Positions 677 to 10,071 of a stretch of DNA of 11,480 bases are shown piece after piece. A program made the translations under genes and the position numbers. Source of the stretch: a virus. The stretch lies in UHGV virus genome UHGV-0171102, one strand, 5' to 3'. Under the pieces are notes generated by a model. That model was not told the DNA's origin and searched no databases. It saw only the letters and a program-made list of their open reading frames with translations. Every line of letters starts with the position of its first letter. Position 1 is the stretch's first letter.

Positions 677-760
677 GTAATTACCTTGGAGGTAATAAAA
701 TATTCTAAAATCTATTGATTTCGTGTCTTATGTGGTTTTTAATTACCTAAGGGGTAAATC
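677..760 (+). promoter_or_regulatory. Candidate promoter/operator region upstream of the DUF1064 gene
   Basis: AT-rich intergenic region. TAATTACCT occurs twice (678-686 and 742-750), the first within the perfect palindrome GGTAATTACC (677-686). Possible -35 TTGATT (715-720) and -10 TTTAAT (738-743) with 17 bp spacing. SD AAGGGG at 749-754. Confidence 0.25.
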
Positions 761-4297: not shown

Positions 4298-4628
4298 ATC
4301 CCCCGCAGAACGCAAAGCCGCGCAGCGCGCTCGGCAGTCCGCCGCCGGTGAGCGCAAAATTGAACTGGTGCTGGATAAGCAGGAGCAGGAAATGCTGGAG
4401 CGTAACTGTGCCACGCGTCGCCCCGGGCGTGCGCCTTACGAATTTGGTGAGTATATAGCGTTACTGACCCGCCAGGATGATGCACGCGTGCGCGGGCGTA
4501 TAAAATCGATCAGCAGAAAACGTTGCGGTAAGTGCGGCGAGAGAGTTCCAGTTAATTCATGCCCGTGTAATGGTGACTCGCAATGCTGGGTGACCAAAGG
4601 CTGGCATGAAACGAAATTAATAGTGTGA
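4281..4628 (+). CDS. Hypothetical protein with basic N-terminus and Cys-rich C-terminus (possible zinc ribbon)
   Basis: ORF of 115 aa. Start uncertain: GTG 4281 or GTG 4290, the latter with GGAG 8 nt upstream. C-terminal CGKCG...CPCNG cluster. Stop TGA lies inside the 12-bp palindrome. Confidence 0.55.
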   Translation: MRFVAKSPAERKAAQRARQSAAGERKIELVLDKQEQEMLERNCATRRPGRAPYEFGEYIALLTRQDDARVRGRIKSISRKRCGKCGERVPVNSCPCNGDSQCWVTKGWHETKLIV

Positions 4629-4648
4629 CATGTCACGAAGGTGTTATG
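4624..4648. repeat. Copy 1 of a palindromic repeat: TGTGACATGTCACG + GAA + GTGTTAT
   Basis: Perfect 12-bp palindrome GTGACATGTCAC at 4625-4636. The same 14-mer and following GTGTTAT recur at 7075-7095. Confidence 0.6.
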
Positions 4649-4858
4649 CCAAAAATACGCTACGACCTTGAAGATATGAGAGATAACTCAGCAAATTTTC
4701 CGAAAGAGGTTAAATTTCTCATGCATAAGTATGGTTGCGCCAGGAGGGATATAGTTATCGACAGTCAGCACCCTTGCGGCGAGGATGTAATTTTCATTCG
4801 CGGTAAATGGGAAGGGTATCTTGACGAGAGTTTTTACGATGAATTTGATGGACTTTGA
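4625..4858 (+). CDS. Hypothetical small protein (about 70-77 aa)
   Basis: ORF immediately upstream of terS. Start is either GTG 4625 or ATG 4646 (MPKIRYDLEDMRDN...). Contains AGA and tandem AGG AGG codons. Confidence 0.5.
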   Translation: MTCHEGVMPKIRYDLEDMRDNSANFPKEVKFLMHKYGCARRDIVIDSQHPCGEDVIFIRGKWEGYLDESFYDEFDGL

Positions 4859-4893
4859 ATACTGCCGCCAACTATGGCGGCTTTATTTTGCAT

Positions 4894-4925
4894 GGTACTA
4901 TTACCACAACGGTAACTATTACCAC
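4894..4925 (+). repeat. Tandem direct repeat GGTA(A)CTATTACCAC x2 directly upstream of the terS start
   Basis: ACTATTACCAC at 4897-4907 and 4915-4925 (period 18 bp), followed by GGTGG and ATGATG. Confidence 0.5.
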
Positions 4926-4932
4926 GGTGGTT

Positions 4933-5529
4933 ATGATGCCTGCTGAACCTAAAACCTATAAACGCAAATCAACGCAATTTAAGCCACTAACAGCAATGCA
5001 GGAGGCTTATTGCCAGTCATACATCAAAACGCCTGAAAACCAGACTCAGGCAGCGATTAACGCAGGATTCTCCCCAAATACAGCGGCAGTTAAAGCCAGT
5101 GTCATGATGCGCGATGAACGCATTCAAAAACGGATTGCCGAGTTGATGGAGGAGCGCAACAAACGAATGCGCGTCAGTGCTGATTACGTTCTCATGCGCC
5201 TGGTGGAGATCGACCAGATGGACGTGATCGACATCCTCAACGACGATGGGAGCCTTAAGCCAATCCGCGAGTGGCCGAAAATCTGGCGCACTACGCTTAG
5301 TGGCTTTGATCTGTCATCGACCATCATGAACATGAACGAGGATTCGATAGAGACAATCCTCAAAAAAATTAAATGGCCTGACAAGGTGAAGAACCTCGAA
5401 CTGATTGGTAAGCACGTCGACGTCAACGCATTCAAAGAACGCCTGGATGTTAATGTGAATGTGACAATTGCTGATCGCATAGCGGCAGCCAGGAAGAGAC
5501 TGAAAGAACGTCAGGATGGCAATCAGTGA
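4933..5529 (+). CDS. Terminase small subunit
   Basis: Protein ...INAGFSPNTAAVKASVMMRDERIQKRI... fits the small-terminase family pattern (AGYSxxxA...). Sits immediately upstream of, and overlapping, the large terminase gene. Start ambiguous (ATG 4933 or 4936; the open frame extends to TTG 4855). Confidence 0.8.
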   Translation: MMPAEPKTYKRKSTQFKPLTAMQEAYCQSYIKTPENQTQAAINAGFSPNTAAVKASVMMRDERIQKRIAELMEERNKRMRVSADYVLMRLVEIDQMDVIDILNDDGSLKPIREWPKIWRTTLSGFDLSSTIMNMNEDSIETILKKIKWPDKVKNLELIGKHVDVNAFKERLDVNVNVTIADRIAAARKRLKERQDGNQ

Positions 5530-7001
5530 CAGATACAGCGTTATCTCCTGAAGAGCAGTTAATCGAGGATATTGCAGGGTTCACTCACGATCCGCTTGGC
5601 TATGCCCTCTATGCGTTCCCGTGGGGGGAAGAGGGTACTGAACTGGCACATGCCACCGGTCCACGTCAGTGGCAGGCCGATGCGTTCCGAGAGATACGTG
5701 ATCACCTGCAGAATCCAGAGACGCGATATCAGCCGCTTATGCTGGCACGTGCTTCTGGTCACGGTATTGGTAAATCCGCATTCATCTCAATGCTGATCAA
5801 CTGGGGCATGTCCACTTGCGAGGATTGTAAGGTCGTGGTGACCGCCAACACCGACAACCAGCTACGAACGAAGACCTGGCCGGAAATTATCAAGTGGTCA
5901 AACCTTGCTATCACGAAAGACTGGTTTACCTGTACCGCTACCGCGATGTACAGCAATGACCCTGGGCACGACAAGCGGTGGCGAGCTGACGCAATCCCCT
6001 GGTCTGAGCACAACACTGAGGCATTCGCCGGACTACACAACGAGCGTAAACGCATCATCGTGGTATTTGATGAAGCGTCGAACATTGCGGATCTGGTGTG
6101 GGAAGTTGCCGAGGGTGCGCTAACGGACGAAGACACTGAGATTATCTGGGTGGCTTTCGGAAACCCTACACGTAACACCGGGCGTTTCCGTGAATGTTTC
6201 CGCAAATACAAACACCGCTGGAAAACTGCGCAGATTGACAGCAGGACGGTGGAAGGCACCAACAAACAGCAGTTGCAGAAATGGGTTGATGACTACGGGG
6301 AAGATAGCGACTTCGTTAAAATCCGTGTGCGTGGCATATTCCCTGATGCATCTGAATTGCAGTTTATCCCTACCGGTCTTACTGACGAGGCAATGAAACG
6401 GGTGGTAACTGCTGCGCAGGTGGCACATGCTCCGGTGATAATCGGCGTTGACCCGGCATACTCCGGCGTTGATGACGCTGTGATATACCTGCGGCAGGGG
6501 CTACACAGTAAGGTGCTGTGGACTGGCAACAAGACTACCGACGATCTGATTATGGCGAAGCGTATCGCTGACTTTGAAGACCAGTATCAGGCTGACGCGG
6601 TGTTCATCGACTTCGGTTACGGAACCGGTTTGAAGTCAATCGGTGACGGCTGGGGTCGTACATGGCAACTTGTTCCGTTCGGTGGCGCGTCTACTGACCA
6701 GCAGATGCTCAACAAGCGTGGGGAGATGTTCAACTCATGCAAGACATGGCTGAGGCTGGGCGGCATGCTTGATGACCAGGAAACAGCGGACGACCTGTCG
6801 GCGGCAGAGTACAAAGTTCGAGTGGACGGTAAAATCGTTATCGAACCGAAGGAAGATATCAAGGAGCGGCTTGGGCGTTCTCCTGGTAAAGGCGATGCGC
6901 TACTGCTGACGTTTGCGTTCCCGGTGTCAAAGCGCCTGCGAATTCCCGGGCAGCAGAACCAGCAAGGCAAGGCCATTACAGATTACGATCCCTATGCTTA
7001 A
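5526..7001 (+). CDS. Terminase large subunit
   Basis: 491 aa. Walker A ASGHGIGKS and Walker B IIVVFDEAS in the N-terminal half; C-terminal nuclease-like IGVDPAYSG. GTG start overlaps the terS stop (GTGA). Confidence 0.9.
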   Translation: MTDTALSPEEQLIEDIAGFTHDPLGYALYAFPWGEEGTELAHATGPRQWQADAFREIRDHLQNPETRYQPLMLARASGHGIGKSAFISMLINWGMSTCEDCKVVVTANTDNQLRTKTWPEIIKWSNLAITKDWFTCTATAMYSNDPGHDKRWRADAIPWSEHNTEAFAGLHNERKRIIVVFDEASNIADLVWEVAEGALTDEDTEIIWVAFGNPTRNTGRFRECFRKYKHRWKTAQIDSRTVEGTNKQQLQKWVDDYGEDSDFVKIRVRGIFPDASELQFIPTGLTDEAMKRVVTAAQVAHAPVIIGVDPAYSGVDDAVIYLRQGLHSKVLWTGNKTTDDLIMAKRIADFEDQYQADAVFIDFGYGTGLKSIGDGWGRTWQLVPFGGASTDQQMLNKRGEMFNSCKTWLRLGGMLDDQETADDLSAAEYKVRVDGKIVIEPKEDIKERLGRSPGKGDALLLTFAFPVSKRLRIPGQQNQQGKAITDYDPYA

Positions 7002-7027: not shown

Positions 7028-7077
7028 TATCCTCTGGTGAGGATAAAACAAAGCCAGCTCATCGGCTGGCTGTTTGT
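7028..7077. terminator. Candidate bidirectional terminator between convergent terL (+) and the 123-aa ORF (-)
   Basis: Hairpin TATCCTC-TGGT-GAGGATA (7028-7045) and hairpin AGCCAGC-TCATCG-GCTGGCT (7052-7071). The second is flanked by TTTGTTTT on the minus strand and TGTTTGT on the plus strand. Confidence 0.4.
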
Positions 7078-7096
7078 GACATGTCACGGTGTTATT
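7075..7096. repeat. Copy 2 of the palindromic repeat: TGTGACATGTCACG + GTGTTAT
   Basis: GTGACATGTCAC at 7076-7087, identical to 4625-4636, with shared flanks. Abuts the stop codon (7092-7094) of the minus-strand ORF. Confidence 0.6.
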
Positions 7097-7463
7097 GCTC
7101 GCTTAACTTCTGCTTCAGCAAGTAACCTTCAAGCATCCAGATTTTGTTTACAGCATTCTGCCGGGCAATCTTCCGACCAATTTCCGCATCAAAGTTTTCT
7201 GGGCTTGCACAGGCGCTCTCTCCGGTGACGGTGAAGCCGTTGCGCAGCACCAGAACGCAGAACGTCAGCAGAGAAAGTGATTCGTTCGGCTGGTAGTTTA
7301 CCTCTCCGCCAGTATGTTTCGCTTTTATGGCCACGCCAAAGACACCATCTTCTGCTGTGAAATATGCCTCCTGAGCAATAATGCTCTCGATATGGTCTGG
7401 CGTAACGCGCGGCGCGGCTAAACCTTTAGCCTGAATTTCAGATTCAATGTCTTTGTCACTCAT
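7092..7463 (-). CDS. Hypothetical protein (123 aa), reverse-oriented moron; possibly N4 Gp49 / Sf6 gp66-like family (tentative)
   Basis: Minus-strand ORF with SD AAGGTGA about 9 nt upstream of ATG 7463. Convergent with terL and followed by a terminator hairpin. The family assignment is from memory and weak. Confidence 0.7.
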   Translation of the reverse strand: MSDKDIESEIQAKGLAAPRVTPDHIESIIAQEAYFTAEDGVFGVAIKAKHTGGEVNYQPNESLSLLTFCVLVLRNGFTVTGESACASPENFDAEIGRKIARQNAVNKIWMLEGYLLKQKLSEQ

Positions 7464-7479
7464 AGTCTATTCTCACCTT

Positions 7480-7504
7480 AAAAAAATGCCCGGCGAACCG
7501 GGCG
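7480..7504 (-). terminator. Intrinsic terminator-like hairpin (UUCG tetraloop) plus U7, directly abutting the RBS of the 123-aa ORF
   Basis: Minus-strand RNA GCCCGG-UUCG-CCGGGC followed by AUUUUUUU, then AAGGUGAGAAUAGACU-AUG. Confidence 0.5.
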
Positions 7505-7581
7505 AACTGGAGGCAATGAGTTATGCCTTCCGTGGCTGTACTGGTTTACAGCATGAAGTCATCGCAATGGCGTCCTGCTGT

Positions 7582-7624
7582 AAAAATGGCGGTGATAGTC
7601 CTTCAAGGGAAACCATCACCGCCA
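7582..7624 (-). terminator. Candidate tRNA terminator
   Basis: Perfect 10-bp inverted repeat TGGCGGTGAT / ATCACCGCCA (7587-7596 / 7615-7624) with an 18-nt loop, followed on the minus strand by UUUUU. Lies about 45 nt downstream of the tRNA 3' end. Confidence 0.45.
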
Positions 7625-7666
7625 AGCCCCTGGAACTTCTGGCATCACGGTCCTTAGGCGTGATTC

Positions 7667-7743
7667 TGGCGTGGCATGCAGGATTCGAACCTGCGACCAA
7701 CCGCTTAGAAGGCGGTTGCTCTGTCCAACTGAGCTAATGCCAC
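7667..7743 (-). tRNA. tRNA-Arg (anticodon UCU), phage-encoded, CCA encoded
   Basis: Reverse complement GTGGCAT-TA-GCTC-AGTTGGACA-GAGC-A-ACCGC-CTTCTAA-GCGGT-TGGTC-GCAGG-TTCGAAT-CCTGC-ATGCCAC-GCCA. Acceptor (7 bp), anticodon and T stems are perfect, with a 4-bp D stem and GTTCGAATC T-loop. Anticodon TCT. Confidence 0.9.
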
Positions 7744-8170
7744 AACGCTGAGAGCACTTAGCCTGTTAAGGCACCACACTTTGTCGCGGCTCCATAAATG
7801 CTCTCATCGTTGCACCCTCGTCTCTTCCGAGGTGTCACACCGAATCGCCGGGATGGTGAATCCCCGTGCGCGGAATAAAACCGCTCGACTTGCACATTCC
7901 GGCTACCTGGTTCGTTTGCCATAGCAAGGGAGGGTGCCCCTTAAACGTATCCAGACCGCTATCGGCGCATGTGCCATACACCGTACTGCTCAAAATAAAA
8001 GCTCACCCCACCTGTTCAATTTAACGACAAGCCAGTCAGGTTAATAACCGGAATGAACTCTTTGCTTACCTGAAAGGTAATAATTAGTGCGTTAAATGTC
8101 AAGTATCTACGATAAATAAATCACATGTGGTTAAATTGGTAATAATTTAATTGCGTACGGAGTCATTGAT

Positions 8171-8377
8171 ATGTGCATGGGTAGCTCACCATCAGTGCCT
8201 GCAACACCAGAAGTTCAGGCAGCACCACAGGAGCAGGATGCCGCCGTTGTTGATGCCCGCGACGAAGAAACTCGTCGCCGTCGCGCTGCTGCTGGTCGTA
8301 GTTCTACGCTGCTTACCGGTTCTCAGGGCGACACATCAACCGCTAATACCAGCGGTAAAACGCTGCTTGGTCAGTAA
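8171..8377 (+). CDS. Small low-complexity protein (68 aa) upstream of portal
   Basis: ATG with GGAG 8 nt upstream. Its translation-initiation region CGGAGTCATTGA-N-ATG is identical to that of the portal gene. Protein is rich in A/S/T/Q/R, likely disordered. Confidence 0.5.
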   Translation: MCMGSSPSVPATPEVQAAPQEQDAAVVDARDEETRRRRAAAGRSSTLLTGSQGDTSTANTSGKTLLGQ

Positions 8378-8391
8378 CCGGAGTCATTGAA

Positions 8392-10071
8392 ATGGCGGAA
8401 ACAACTAAAGAGCGATTGAACAAACAGTTCGCACAACTTGAAAGCGAGCGTCAGTCGTTCGAGCCGCACTGGCGCGAGTTGAGTGATTACATCAACCCGC
8501 GTGGTTCCCGCTTTCTGACTTCTGAGGTCAACCGTAACGATCGACGCAATACACGCATTATTGATTCGACCGGGACTATGGCGGCGCGCACTCTCGCCAG
8601 CGGCATGATGTCAGGCATCACAAGCCCCGCGCGTCCGTGGTTTCGCCTGGCTACGCCAGATCCTGAAATGATGGATTATGGCCCTGTTAAGTTGTGGCTT
8701 GAGGCGGTGCAGAACCGCATGAACGATATATTCAATAAGTCGAATCTCTACCAGTCTCTTCCGCAGTTATACGGAAGCCTCGGCACATACAGCACTGGTG
8801 CAATGGCGGTGCTGGAGGATGACGAGGACATCATTCGCACAATGCCATTCCCGATAGGCAGTTACTACCTGGCTAACTCACCTCGTGGCAGTGTGGACAC
8901 CTGTTTTCGCAAGTTCTCTATGACTGTTCGTCAGCTTGTTCAGGAGTTCGGGCTAAATAACGTCAGCGAATCCGTAAAAAGCATGTGGGAAAGCGGCACC
9001 TACGAGAAGTGGATTGAAGTGATGCATTCGGTTTACCCGAACATTGACCGCGATACATCGAAGCTGGATAGCAAGAACAAGCCATTCAAATCGGTTTATT
9101 ACGAGGTTGGTGGCGATAACGACAAGTTGTTGCGTGAGTCCGGATTCGATGAGTTTCCAATTATGGCTCCGCGCTGGGAAGTTAACGGCGAAGATGTTTA
9201 TGGATCATCATGCCCGGGTATGCTGGCGCTTGGACCTGTTAAGGCATTGCAGCTTCTCCAGAAGCGCAAGTCGCAGTTGATTGATAAAGCCACCAATCCG
9301 CCGATGGTTGCTCCGACTTCCCTCAAGAATCAGCGCGCCTCCCTTCTTCCTGGCGACATCACGTATATCGATCAGATTACTGGTCAGGATGGTTTCAGGC
9401 CTGCTTATCTGGTTAACCCCAGTACAGCAGATCTGGTAGCAGACATTCAGGACACCCGCCAAATCATTAACAGCGCCTACTTTGTCGATCTGTTCATGAT
9501 GTTGCAGAACATCAATACCCGCTCGATGCCTGTTGAAGCGGTGATCGAAATGAAAGAAGAAAAACTTCTGATGTTGGGGCCGGTTCTGGAGCGTCTGAAC
9601 GACGAATGTCTTAATCCTCTCATTGACCGCGCTTTCTCGATGATGGTGCGTAAAAACATGCTGCCGCCCCCGCCTGACGCGATGGAAGGTATGCCCCTGA
9701 AGGTCGAATACATTTCCGTCATGGCTCAGGCGCAGAAGTCTATCGGCCTGTCCAGTCTGGCGTCCACGGTTAACTTCATTGGTCAACTTGCGCAAGCGAA
9801 ACCAGAAGCTCTCGACAAACTCAACGTTGATCAGGCAATCGATGCATTCGCTGATATGTCCGGAGTGTCTCCAACCGTCATTGTTCCGCAGGAACAGGTT
9901 GAGCAGGCTCGCCAGCAACGGGCACAGCAGCAACAGCAGCAACAAATGATGGCGATGGGGATGGCGGCGGCACAGGGTGCCAAGACGCTAAGCGAAGCTA
10001 AAACTTCGGATCCGAGTGTTTTGTCAGCTATGGCGAATGCAGTTAGTGGTCAGGGTGGGCAATCACAATGA
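8392..10071 (+). CDS. Portal (head-to-tail connector) protein, T7-like family
   Basis: 559 aa. The Q-rich C-terminal tail ...QQQQQQQMMAMGMAAAQGAK... resembles the T7 gp8 C-terminus as I recall it. Sits between the terminase and the scaffold/capsid genes. Confidence 0.85.
   Translation: MAETTKERLNKQFAQLESERQSFEPHWRELSDYINPRGSRFLTSEVNRNDRRNTRIIDSTGTMAARTLASGMMSGITSPARPWFRLATPDPEMMDYGPVKLWLEAVQNRMNDIFNKSNLYQSLPQLYGSLGTYSTGAMAVLEDDEDIIRTMPFPIGSYYLANSPRGSVDTCFRKFSMTVRQLVQEFGLNNVSESVKSMWESGTYEKWIEVMHSVYPNIDRDTSKLDSKNKPFKSVYYEVGGDNDKLLRESGFDEFPIMAPRWEVNGEDVYGSSCPGMLALGPVKALQLLQKRKSQLIDKATNPPMVAPTSLKNQRASLLPGDITYIDQITGQDGFRPAYLVNPSTADLVADIQDTRQIINSAYFVDLFMMLQNINTRSMPVEAVIEMKEEKLLMLGPVLERLNDECLNPLIDRAFSMMVRKNMLPPPPDAMEGMPLKVEYISVMAQAQKSIGLSSLASTVNFIGQLAQAKPEALDKLNVDQAIDAFADMSGVSPTVIVPQEQVEQARQQRAQQQQQQQMMAMGMAAAQGAKTLSEAKTSDPSVLSAMANAVSGQGGQSQ

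Follow-up and report, generated by a model that had tools for sequence, protein, structure and literature searches.

The locus between the terminase and portal genes

We analyzed a stretch of 11,480 nucleotides (nt) of the virus genome UHGV-0171102, referred to here as the window, and in particular two tandem terminator-like hairpins (hairpins 1 and 2) that lie on its minus strand between a tRNA gene and an open reading frame (ORF) of 123 amino acids (aa), here called the cargo ORF. The window belongs to a phiV10-like Uetakevirus (epsilon15-like podophages), and the 1.1 kb around the hairpins are 98.4% identical to Escherichia phage phiV10. The hairpins are part of a minus-strand block between the terminase and portal genes that consists of tRNA-Arg(UCU), the two hairpins, the cargo ORF, and a terminator at 7071–7052. 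It was found that each hairpin shows all the structural parts of an intrinsic terminator and, judging from the comparison of related sequences, is selected as an RNA structure, with termination itself being predicted. The original prediction, made by reading the sequence without database searches, had described the hairpins, their U tracts, and a Shine–Dalgarno sequence and AUG directly downstream; all of these were confirmed on the minus strand by reading the sequence directly, and the features of the block are as follows.

7743–7667, minus strand: tRNA-Arg, anticodon UCU (ARAGORN; Rfam tRNA model, 73.3 bits)
7664–7644, minus strand: short conserved hairpin AUCACG-N9-CGUGAU, just 3′ of the tRNA
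7624–7587, minus strand, then U5 at 7586–7582: hairpin 1, a terminator-type hairpin closing the tRNA (or tRNA-like) module
7584–7545, minus strand: hairpin A, long and irregular, with the base UUUACAGCA/UGCUGUAAA and the top GCCAU[UGCG]AUGAC
7531–7509, minus strand: hairpin B, GGAAGGCA...UGCCUCC, seen in the minimum-energy fold
7503–7488, minus strand, then A at 7487 and U7 at 7486–7480: hairpin 2, GCCCGG-UUCG-CCGGGC, an intrinsic-terminator module and the boundary of the cargo slot
7479–7473, minus strand: ribosome-binding site AAGGUGA, abutting the U tract of hairpin 2, with the AUG at 7463–7461
7463–7092, minus strand: cargo ORF, 123 aa, Pfam PF13876 (Phage_gp49_66)
7076–7087: palindrome GTGACATGTCAC, the right-hand border of the cargo slot, found after the stop codon of every cargo family
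7071–7052, minus strand: weak terminator hairpin ending the cargo ORF, annotated as a plus-strand terminator in phiV10

Conservation and covariation of hairpins 1 and 2

The stem of hairpin 1 has 15 pairs, including G·U, around the core GGCGGUGAU/AUCACCGCC, and the stem of hairpin 2 consists of six G-C pairs beneath a UUCG loop. The calculated stabilities are −23.6 to −24.4 kcal/mol for hairpin 1 (z = −6.3) and −11.2 kcal/mol for hairpin 2, and of the 15 terminator-like sites that a consensus scan reported in the window, the two ranked first and third. Such sites were no more numerous than expected by chance, either in 2 kb (4 versus 2.1 ± 1.7) or in the whole window (15 versus 10.8 ± 3.2), and therefore the sequence alone is no proof that the hairpins have a function. 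We judged them to be real because they are conserved with compensatory changes.

With BLAST and a pair of pattern scans, we recovered the stretch spanning hairpin 1 to U7 from more than 150 viral contigs and 35 phage records, from another five enterobacterial species, and from 504 of 5,426 complete E. coli genomes (~9%). The sets compared were 138 unique variants for the T runs and the promoter scan, 38 diverse copies for the hairpin consensus, 22 relatives for the leader described below, 136 for the block upstream of it, and 90 parsed variants for competing pairings.

The RNAalifold consensus of the 38 diverse copies contained hairpin 1, hairpin A, and hairpin 2. In these relatives 98.8% of the base-pair cells were paired, compared to 31–47% when the partners were slid, and compensatory double changes were present in eight pairs (four in hairpin 1, two in hairpin A, and two in hairpin 2); none of 500 shuffles matched the observed pairing or covariation score. 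The stem of hairpin 1 occurs, for example, as GAUGG/CUAUC, GGCAG/CUGACC, and ACCAG/CUGGU, and the GCCCGG/CCGGGC stem of hairpin 2 is changed to GCCCAC/GUGGGC in 10 of the 38 sequences. Each of the 138 unique variants has a minus-strand T run behind both hairpins, 3–8 nt long (mode 5) for hairpin 1 and 5–10 nt long (mode 7) for hairpin 2. The U run of hairpin 2 is at least 7 nt long in 135 of the 138, including variants in which a promoter instead of a ribosome-binding site comes after it. The annotation of epsilon15 lists hairpin 2 as a rho-independent terminator, and the homology between phage TL-2011b and the window (8000–7480) ends exactly at 7480, which is the end of the U tract. The hairpins thus combine a G+C stem and U tract, covariation in the stem, and a position at the end of a transcription unit, as intrinsic terminators do.

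Hairpin 1 is destroyed in epsilon15 and E15, which are without the tRNA. These phages appear to have lost the tRNA when the segment between two copies of UUCCCUUGAUGCU, an upstream one and one in the hairpin 1 loop, was deleted, and because the deletion that removes the tRNA also destroys hairpin 1, we assign this hairpin to the tRNA module. As a comparison of phage SPN9TCW (L006) with L004 and L007 shows, a direct repeat, GGxUUCCCUUGAUGCU, flanks the tRNA-containing segment of SPN9TCW, with one copy in the hairpin 1 loop and one in a hairpin of the leader (~2265–2280 and ~2660–2675); epsilon15 and E15 look like the product of a deletion between both copies. Three lineages have an extra ORF, with its own ribosome-binding site and terminator, inserted exactly at the U tract of hairpin 1. 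Phages of the L012 type have an ORF and ribosome-binding site directly after this U tract (CCCTTTTTACCGGAGAAAAGTATG), which repeats the pattern of hairpin 2 and the cargo ORF.

Two variants have an inverted loop with the stem kept: hairpin 2 of L081 has CGAA instead of TTCG, and in hairpin 1 of L103 the whole loop is reverse-complemented. This suggests the flipping of palindromes at the DNA level.

The spacer between the hairpins

Hairpin A is present in every variant, including epsilon15, and its base makes use of the last three U residues of the hairpin 1 U tract. Its TTTACA and TGTAAA segments are invariant (alignment A1), and two of its middle pairs covary, AU being exchanged for GC in 14 of the 38 sequences. 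The 15-mer CGCCATTGCGATGAC was considered as an invariant antisense seed and was rejected, as it varied in a second scan from an independent anchor; the variation is mostly in the tetraloop of hairpin A (UGCG, UCCG, UGUG, UACG, CGCG, CACG, and CCCG).

Hairpin B, which has at least three sequence types, is outside the RNAalifold consensus and is deleted in the L063 contig, and it appears to be a dispensable, variable part of the spacer. The most variable part of all is the single-stranded linker. A 13-codon ORF in the spacer (AUG ACU UCA UGC UGU AAA ...) was rejected as a leader peptide: its frame and length differ among phiV10, E15, SPN9TCW, and Kp4865-1, with indels of 1–2 nt in the linker. 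Also against an antisense seed, complementarity to the rest of the phiV10 genome was not above chance, with one 11-nt match versus 3.7 in shuffles.

The cargo slot downstream of hairpin 2

The cargo ORF matched PF13876 with E = 2.5e-35 (121.2 bits, for a cut-off of 27) and the solved structure of SPO1 Acb4 (PDB 9e4w) weakly, with E = 0.007. PF13876 has been equated with the Acb4 family of anti-CBASS nucleotide sponges (bioRxiv 10.1101/2024.12.30.630793, 10.1101/2025.07.12.664507). By sequence, the cargo ORF is a member of this family, and binding of cyclic nucleotides and inhibition of CBASS are predicted for its product.

Elsewhere, this position is occupied by other genes. In 134 loci the U tract of hairpin 2 is followed by AAGGTGA-N4-9-ATG and then by one of about nine unrelated ORF families or by an 8-codon remnant. 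In a second junction class (20 loci), an operator-promoter and a different gene come after the U tract; the junction reads GCYTGRTGAC...TTACC-N5-GGTAtaat, with TTACC-N5-GGTA lying over the −10 element, and two of these score as canonical promoters. The U run is still 7–10 T in the second class, and because it is kept in both junction classes, it belongs to hairpin 2 and not to the ribosome-binding site. Mosaic breakpoints fall at the end of the U tract or at the ribosome-binding site and ATG.

Occupants of the slot in other loci are Tad2-like (PF11195) and Acb2/Tad1-like (PF24729) proteins and at least six unrelated ORFs without assigned function. Because the occupants include Acb4-, Tad2-, and Acb2/Tad1-family proteins, we call the slot a hotspot for counter-defence cargo, as predicted from family membership. 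In two loci (L013 and L099) the cargo ORF is joined straight to the spacer, without hairpin 2, and these junctions agree with transcription coming from upstream.

The right-hand border, the palindrome GTGACATGTCAC, is enriched in the window, which has two perfect sites and one with a single mismatch versus 0.03 expected. The second copy is at 4625–4636, after the regulator gene upstream of the small terminase gene (terS); a phiV10 copy precedes the terminator at 19505, and in TL-2011b a variant of GTGACATGTCAC is located directly after hairpin 2. The hairpin at 7052–7071 that follows the palindrome in the window probably also ends the convergent plus-strand unit of terS and the large terminase gene (terL).

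Empty slots (L014, L029, L042, L090, and L113) retain an 8-codon ORF, MK(Y/D)EFDGF. This peptide resembles the C-terminal ...DEFD(G/R)(F/L) of epsilon15 gp50 and of a window ORF near 4840–4858, which ends just upstream of the terS region (4625–4858). After each DEFD-type end there are a stop codon and a terminator hairpin, and in cargo slots the GTGACATGTCAC palindrome is between them. In Enterobacter phage Tyrion (L008), the Rfam model int-alpA is matched (44 bits, threshold 35.8) at 2066–2130, immediately past the cargo ORF; the window has no such match.

The putative upstream promoter, the structured leader, and the tRNA slot

Upstream of the tRNA, the minus strand has a putative promoter, an operator-type palindrome, and a large structured RNA domain:

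8102–8074, minus strand: putative leftward promoter, −35 TTGACA at 8102–8097, 17-nt spacer, −10 TACCTT at 8079–8074
8066–8080: operator-type palindrome TTACC-N5-GGTAA, overlapping the −10 element
7986–7744, minus strand: structured leader RNA domain, 243 nt, eight helices with variable inserted hairpins

The promoter, from the position of which a transcription start near 8067 is predicted, was recognized by reading; it is under the threshold of the scanning tool, its −10 hexamer matching at 3 of 6 positions. The block TTGAC(A/C/T)-N16-TTACC-N5-GGTAA is kept in 134 of 136 unique relatives. The palindrome TTACC-N5-GGTAA occurs at five sites in the window (681–695, 743–757, 4901–4915, 4919–4933, and 8066–8080) versus 0.13 expected (~40-fold), and at 14 sites in phiV10 versus 0.67 expected (~20-fold). 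In phiV10 these palindromes front most operons, usually just after a terminator, and two are located in the immunity region, between the helix-turn-helix (HTH) repressor gene p40 and the divergent p41; the epsilon15 record labels a homologous palindrome a repressor-binding site. The palindrome thus looks like a dispersed repressor operator. Since the putative promoter is overlapped by an operator of this type, we infer that the unit is repressor-controlled and hence probably early lytic rather than expressed from the prophage.

The leader is supported by covariation. RNAalifold on 22 diverse relatives gave 48 pairs, 14 of which had compensatory changes; 97.2% of the cells were paired versus 32–45% when slid, and none of 500 shuffles reached any of five measures. 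About 120 G·U cells assign the structure to the minus-strand RNA. When Rfam was searched at gathering and permissive thresholds, only the tRNA of the window reached threshold, and the leader and trailer gave nothing at E ≤ 10; no family match was found for either in 12 related loci or for the leader of phage mEp460. Epsilon15 is without the 240-nt leader domain, yet it retains hairpin 2 and cargo. A boxA-like sequence before the tRNA slot, UGCUCUUU, was rejected as such, since it forms one side of a covarying stem and L130 has a wholly different sequence in its place. The long-stem inserts of the leader in L011, L124, and L177, between GAGAGCAUU and AGUGCUCU, sometimes include sequences like a tRNA T arm (GGGTTCGAATCCC, GCGGTTCGATTCCGC).

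The tRNA-Arg is optional: it is absent from epsilon15 and E15, and other relatives carry a module of 100–200 nt, GUGGUG...CACCAC, instead. Such a replacement module in L207–L211, L005, L008, and L139 reads GUUGUGGUG...CCGGAGAUCAGCACCGG-CACCACAAC-CCA; it is closed by pairing of GUUGUGGUG with CACCACAAC and has a cloverleaf-like four-way fold, to which ARAGORN and Rfam give no match. The AUCACG-N9-CGUGAU hairpin just 3′ of the tRNA is kept in Salmonella, Klebsiella, Citrobacter, and Erwinia relatives.

The lambdoid phages mEp460 (L213, 2503–2933), cdtI (L214), and 2H10 also carry this leader domain, together with a tRNA-shaped module and a homologue of hairpin 1 ending in TCTTTTTACA. There the leader directly follows the cI repressor gene and a PL/OL-like region, and so stands at the head of the early-left operon.

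The genes that flank the block are on the plus strand:

4855–5529, plus strand: small terminase gene, terS
5526–7001, plus strand: large terminase gene, terL
8171–8377, plus strand: small gene
8392–10071, plus strand: portal gene

The plus-strand terminase unit appears to end at the 7052–7071 hairpin, and the head operon appears to restart near the 8066–8080 operator; therefore, the interval 7072–8066 would be transcribed leftward only. A plus-strand ORF in this interval (7447–7737, 96 aa, annotated as the hypothetical protein phiV10p04) runs antisense to both hairpins and the tRNA. We regard it as most likely an erroneous gene prediction, since it cannot exist in epsilon15 and its frame is broken by indels of 1–2 nt. 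Across the window, sigma-70-like promoter matches are rarer than chance (3 versus 11.4 ± 4.1 in shuffles).

Expression of the cargo gene

In agreement with the original prediction, no promoter was found between hairpin 2 and the cargo ORF of the window, either with a scanning tool or in our scan of the variants, both for sigma-70-like promoters. In those of the 138 variants that have the same junction, no sigma-70-like promoter, including the extended −10 type, was found from hairpin 1 to 30 nt past the U tract. Candidates picked by eye (TTTACA-17-TGACTT, TTGCGA-17-CCAGTA, and TGcTGTAAA) are missing key −10 positions, and a sigma-54-like GG/GC pair is incorrectly spaced and not retained in the Salmonella variants. 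Because there is no sigma-70-like promoter from hairpin 1 to the AUG, read-through is the simplest route of expression, and this part of the original proposal stands.

The accompanying idea of an attenuation-like switch coupled to transcription of the tRNA was supported in neither of its halves. No 5-nt upstream complement to either arm of hairpin 2 was present in any of the 90 parsed variants, and the median pairing probability of hairpin 2 in folding of the variants was 0.998. Because there is no competing sequence and no conserved leader peptide, hairpin 2 is not a sensing attenuator. As for coupling, epsilon15, without the tRNA and hairpin 1, retains hairpin A, hairpin 2, and the ORF. Coupling through codon usage was also rejected, the cargo ORF having no AGA or AGG codon.

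The interpretation that we favor, and to which we give about an even chance, is that leaky tandem terminators close a mostly non-coding early transcript and that read-through past hairpin 2 feeds the cargo gene. Transcription would start at the 8102–8074 promoter, which is under the repressor-type operator and would be turned on early after infection or induction. The polymerase would then pass the structured leader, tRNA-Arg, hairpin 1, hairpin A, hairpin B, and hairpin 2. Hairpin 1, with a long stem and a U run of only 3–5 nt, would close the tRNA module and leak. Most non-coding transcripts would stop at hairpin 2, which would also form the constant left-hand border of the cargo slot. The promoterless cargo, here the Acb4-family sponge, would be translated only from transcripts that read through hairpin 2. 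Hairpin 2 would thereby work like a valve, constitutive and without sensing, that determines how much cargo mRNA is made relative to non-coding RNA and tRNA, and it would also insulate the slot where the cargo brings its own promoter.

Several points weigh against this interpretation. The −10 element TACCTT of the upstream promoter is weak, and an activator-dependent or other promoter near the cargo ORF would escape the sigma-70 scans. A search of the literature by phage name and sequence string gave nothing on the element or its transcripts, and termination and read-through are both predicted. Sponge proteins are expected to need high expression, and such a demand fits poorly with a hairpin-U7 terminator and favors anti-termination or a stabilizing role of the hairpin. 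Simple termination also leaves the strong, universal conservation of hairpin A unexplained.

Alternative interpretations

A broader possibility, which we consider less likely than not, is that these phages carry a hitherto undescribed family of leader RNAs, long, modular, and under operator control, in which the hairpins make up the 3′ domain and which would itself be functional. Such an RNA would consist of the multi-helix domain, an interchangeable module (a tRNA or a tRNA-shaped RNA), and hairpins 1, A, and 2, with a predicted length of 0.2–1 kb (median ~590 nt, and ~590 nt in the window). The same family would head the early-left operon of some lambdoid phages. Such a leader might guide the polymerase through its own terminators for the early expression of counter-defence cargo, or it might be processed into a stable RNA.

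Active, processive anti-termination of the HK022 put or lambda nut/N kind is in our estimation unlikely. Here the leader, hairpin A, or both would influence the polymerase in cis or bring in a factor from phage or host, so that polymerase coming from the proper early promoter would pass hairpins 1 and 2 and express the cargo strongly, and stray transcription would be stopped. We retain this reading because terminator-like leader hairpins precede early genes in two unrelated phage groups: the early genes of mEp460, cdtI, and 2H10 must be transcribed through the leader, the counterpart of hairpin 1, and additional hairpins of terminator type. Covariation supports the leader as an RNA structure on the cargo strand, hairpin A is universal and comes immediately before hairpin 2, and a sponge plausibly needs the high expression that anti-termination would give. 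However, no upstream module is universal, epsilon15 keeping hairpin 2 and cargo without the 240-nt leader, and no Rfam family matches the leader. Moreover, a polymerase made resistant to termination would run past the weak 7071–7052 terminator into terL antisense.

We think it improbable that the segment is a discrete small RNA made of hairpins A, B, and 2 (~105 nt), or of the whole tRNA 3′ trailer (~190 nt). Either processing of the tRNA or read-through past hairpin 1 would release this RNA; hairpin 2 would terminate it and might provide an Hfq-type 3′ end, and expression of the ORF would be a side effect of leakage. The segment from hairpin A to hairpin 2 is the sole part of the unit found in all variants, with leader modules, tRNA, hairpin 1, and cargo all varying; it folds better than shuffled sequence (z = −3.2), and it ends in a G+C hairpin and U7. 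However, the best-conserved part is paired and the tetraloop varies, a pattern that suggests a structural role or protein binding and not an antisense seed. The single-stranded linker is the most variable part, the complementarity to the phiV10 genome is at chance level (one 11-nt match versus 3.7), and there is no promoter directly upstream.

The original prediction had also offered hairpin 2 as a structure in the 5′ untranslated region. In this form, the hairpin would stabilize the 5′ end of read-through or processed transcripts, U7 would be an A/U-rich translation enhancer, and termination would be secondary, which we regard as quite improbable. The fusion of the U tract to AAGGUGA has an invariant geometry before about nine unrelated ORF families, and hairpin A is like an irregular double-stranded processing site, by shape only. 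However, hairpin 2 and its U run are conserved to the same degree in loci that have no ribosome-binding site after them, and the cargo of L013 and L099 is joined without hairpin 2.

It is very doubtful that the inverted repeats are conserved as DNA, as protein-binding or recombination linkers that mediate cargo exchange: mosaic junctions do cluster at the hairpins, the loop inversions in hairpins 1 (L103) and 2 (L081) are typical of DNA palindromes, and G·U versus A·C in the three hairpins do not separate the strands (~10 versus ~8 cells), but in every variant only the minus strand has T runs behind both hairpins, and this is also the strand of the ribosome-binding site and ORF that come next; the neighboring leader is strongly biased toward G·U in the minus-strand RNA, and the compensatory changes keep pairing rather than a fixed recognition sequence.

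Comparison with known systems

The hairpins are ordinary in kind, and hairpin 2 was already annotated in epsilon15. What is new is a conserved junction of terminator and ribosome-binding site as the entrance to an anti-defence slot, and a large, uncatalogued RNA that the hairpins would end.

Partial intrinsic terminators are known inside operons, such as T1 between rpsU and dnaG and lambda tR1, where the downstream gene is expressed from the read-through fraction. The locus in the window is similar in that a G+C hairpin and U tract lie between an upstream gene and a promoterless downstream ORF. It differs in that the U tract is fused to the ribosome-binding site and the upstream product is a non-coding RNA plus a tRNA, and in that the junction is kept across genera with the downstream gene exchanged among at least nine families. 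Expression of cargo behind a strong-looking terminator bears on whether simple leakage or RNA-based anti-termination operates in these temperate phages.

A phage moron, as conceived for HK97 and HK022, is a promoter, ORF, and terminator inserted between essential genes, and the original prediction had called the cargo ORF a moron. As in morons, an accessory ORF is present in the opposite orientation between the terminase and portal genes, with its own 3′ terminator and a mosaic distribution, and empty slots exist. Unlike morons, the ORF of the window has no promoter of its own (of the sigma-70 type) and is the last gene of a larger operator-controlled unit that would start at the upstream, operator-overlapped promoter. 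The label is therefore not appropriate for the window, and the definition fits only loci of the second, operator-promoter junction class.

The HK022 put RNAs and the lambda nut/N leaders bring about processive anti-termination. The leader resembles them in being a structured RNA just after a predicted repressor-controlled early promoter and upstream of terminators, and in mEp460 and cdtI it comes after cI and PL. The structured domain of the window is much larger than these and modular, and the likeness seen is one of position.

The small RNA 3′ETS-leuZ is derived from the 3′ external transcribed spacer of a tRNA. The segment between tRNA and hairpin 2 is similarly a conserved, structured trailer between a tRNA and the intrinsic terminator of the operon; in contrast to 3′ETS-leuZ, no conserved single-stranded seed or target in the phage genome was found, and the trailer persists in phages without the tRNA.

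GOLLD and ROOL are large structured phage RNAs found beside tRNAs. The transcript predicted here is likewise a long, ornate, prophage-encoded RNA with an embedded or adjacent tRNA, whereas its modular make-up and enterobacterial hosts differ and no Rfam model, including those two, matches it. The leader is a well-supported structured RNA that is missing from current catalogues of RNA families.

Finally, the slot is comparable to counter-defence hotspots and acr-aca loci and to the phage sponge genes Acb2, Tad1, Tad2, and Acb4 (bioRxiv 10.1101/2023.05.01.538930, 10.1101/2024.12.30.630793, 10.1101/2025.07.12.664507). As in counter-defence hotspots, one fixed position holds alternative anti-defence genes, here of the Acb4, Tad2, and Acb2/Tad1 families. 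Unlike acr-aca loci, the anchor is a conserved RNA/terminator element and not a gene for a regulatory protein, and there is one gene per slot. The junction of hairpin 2, U7, and AAGGTGA could serve as a nucleotide anchor for finding new counter-defence genes.

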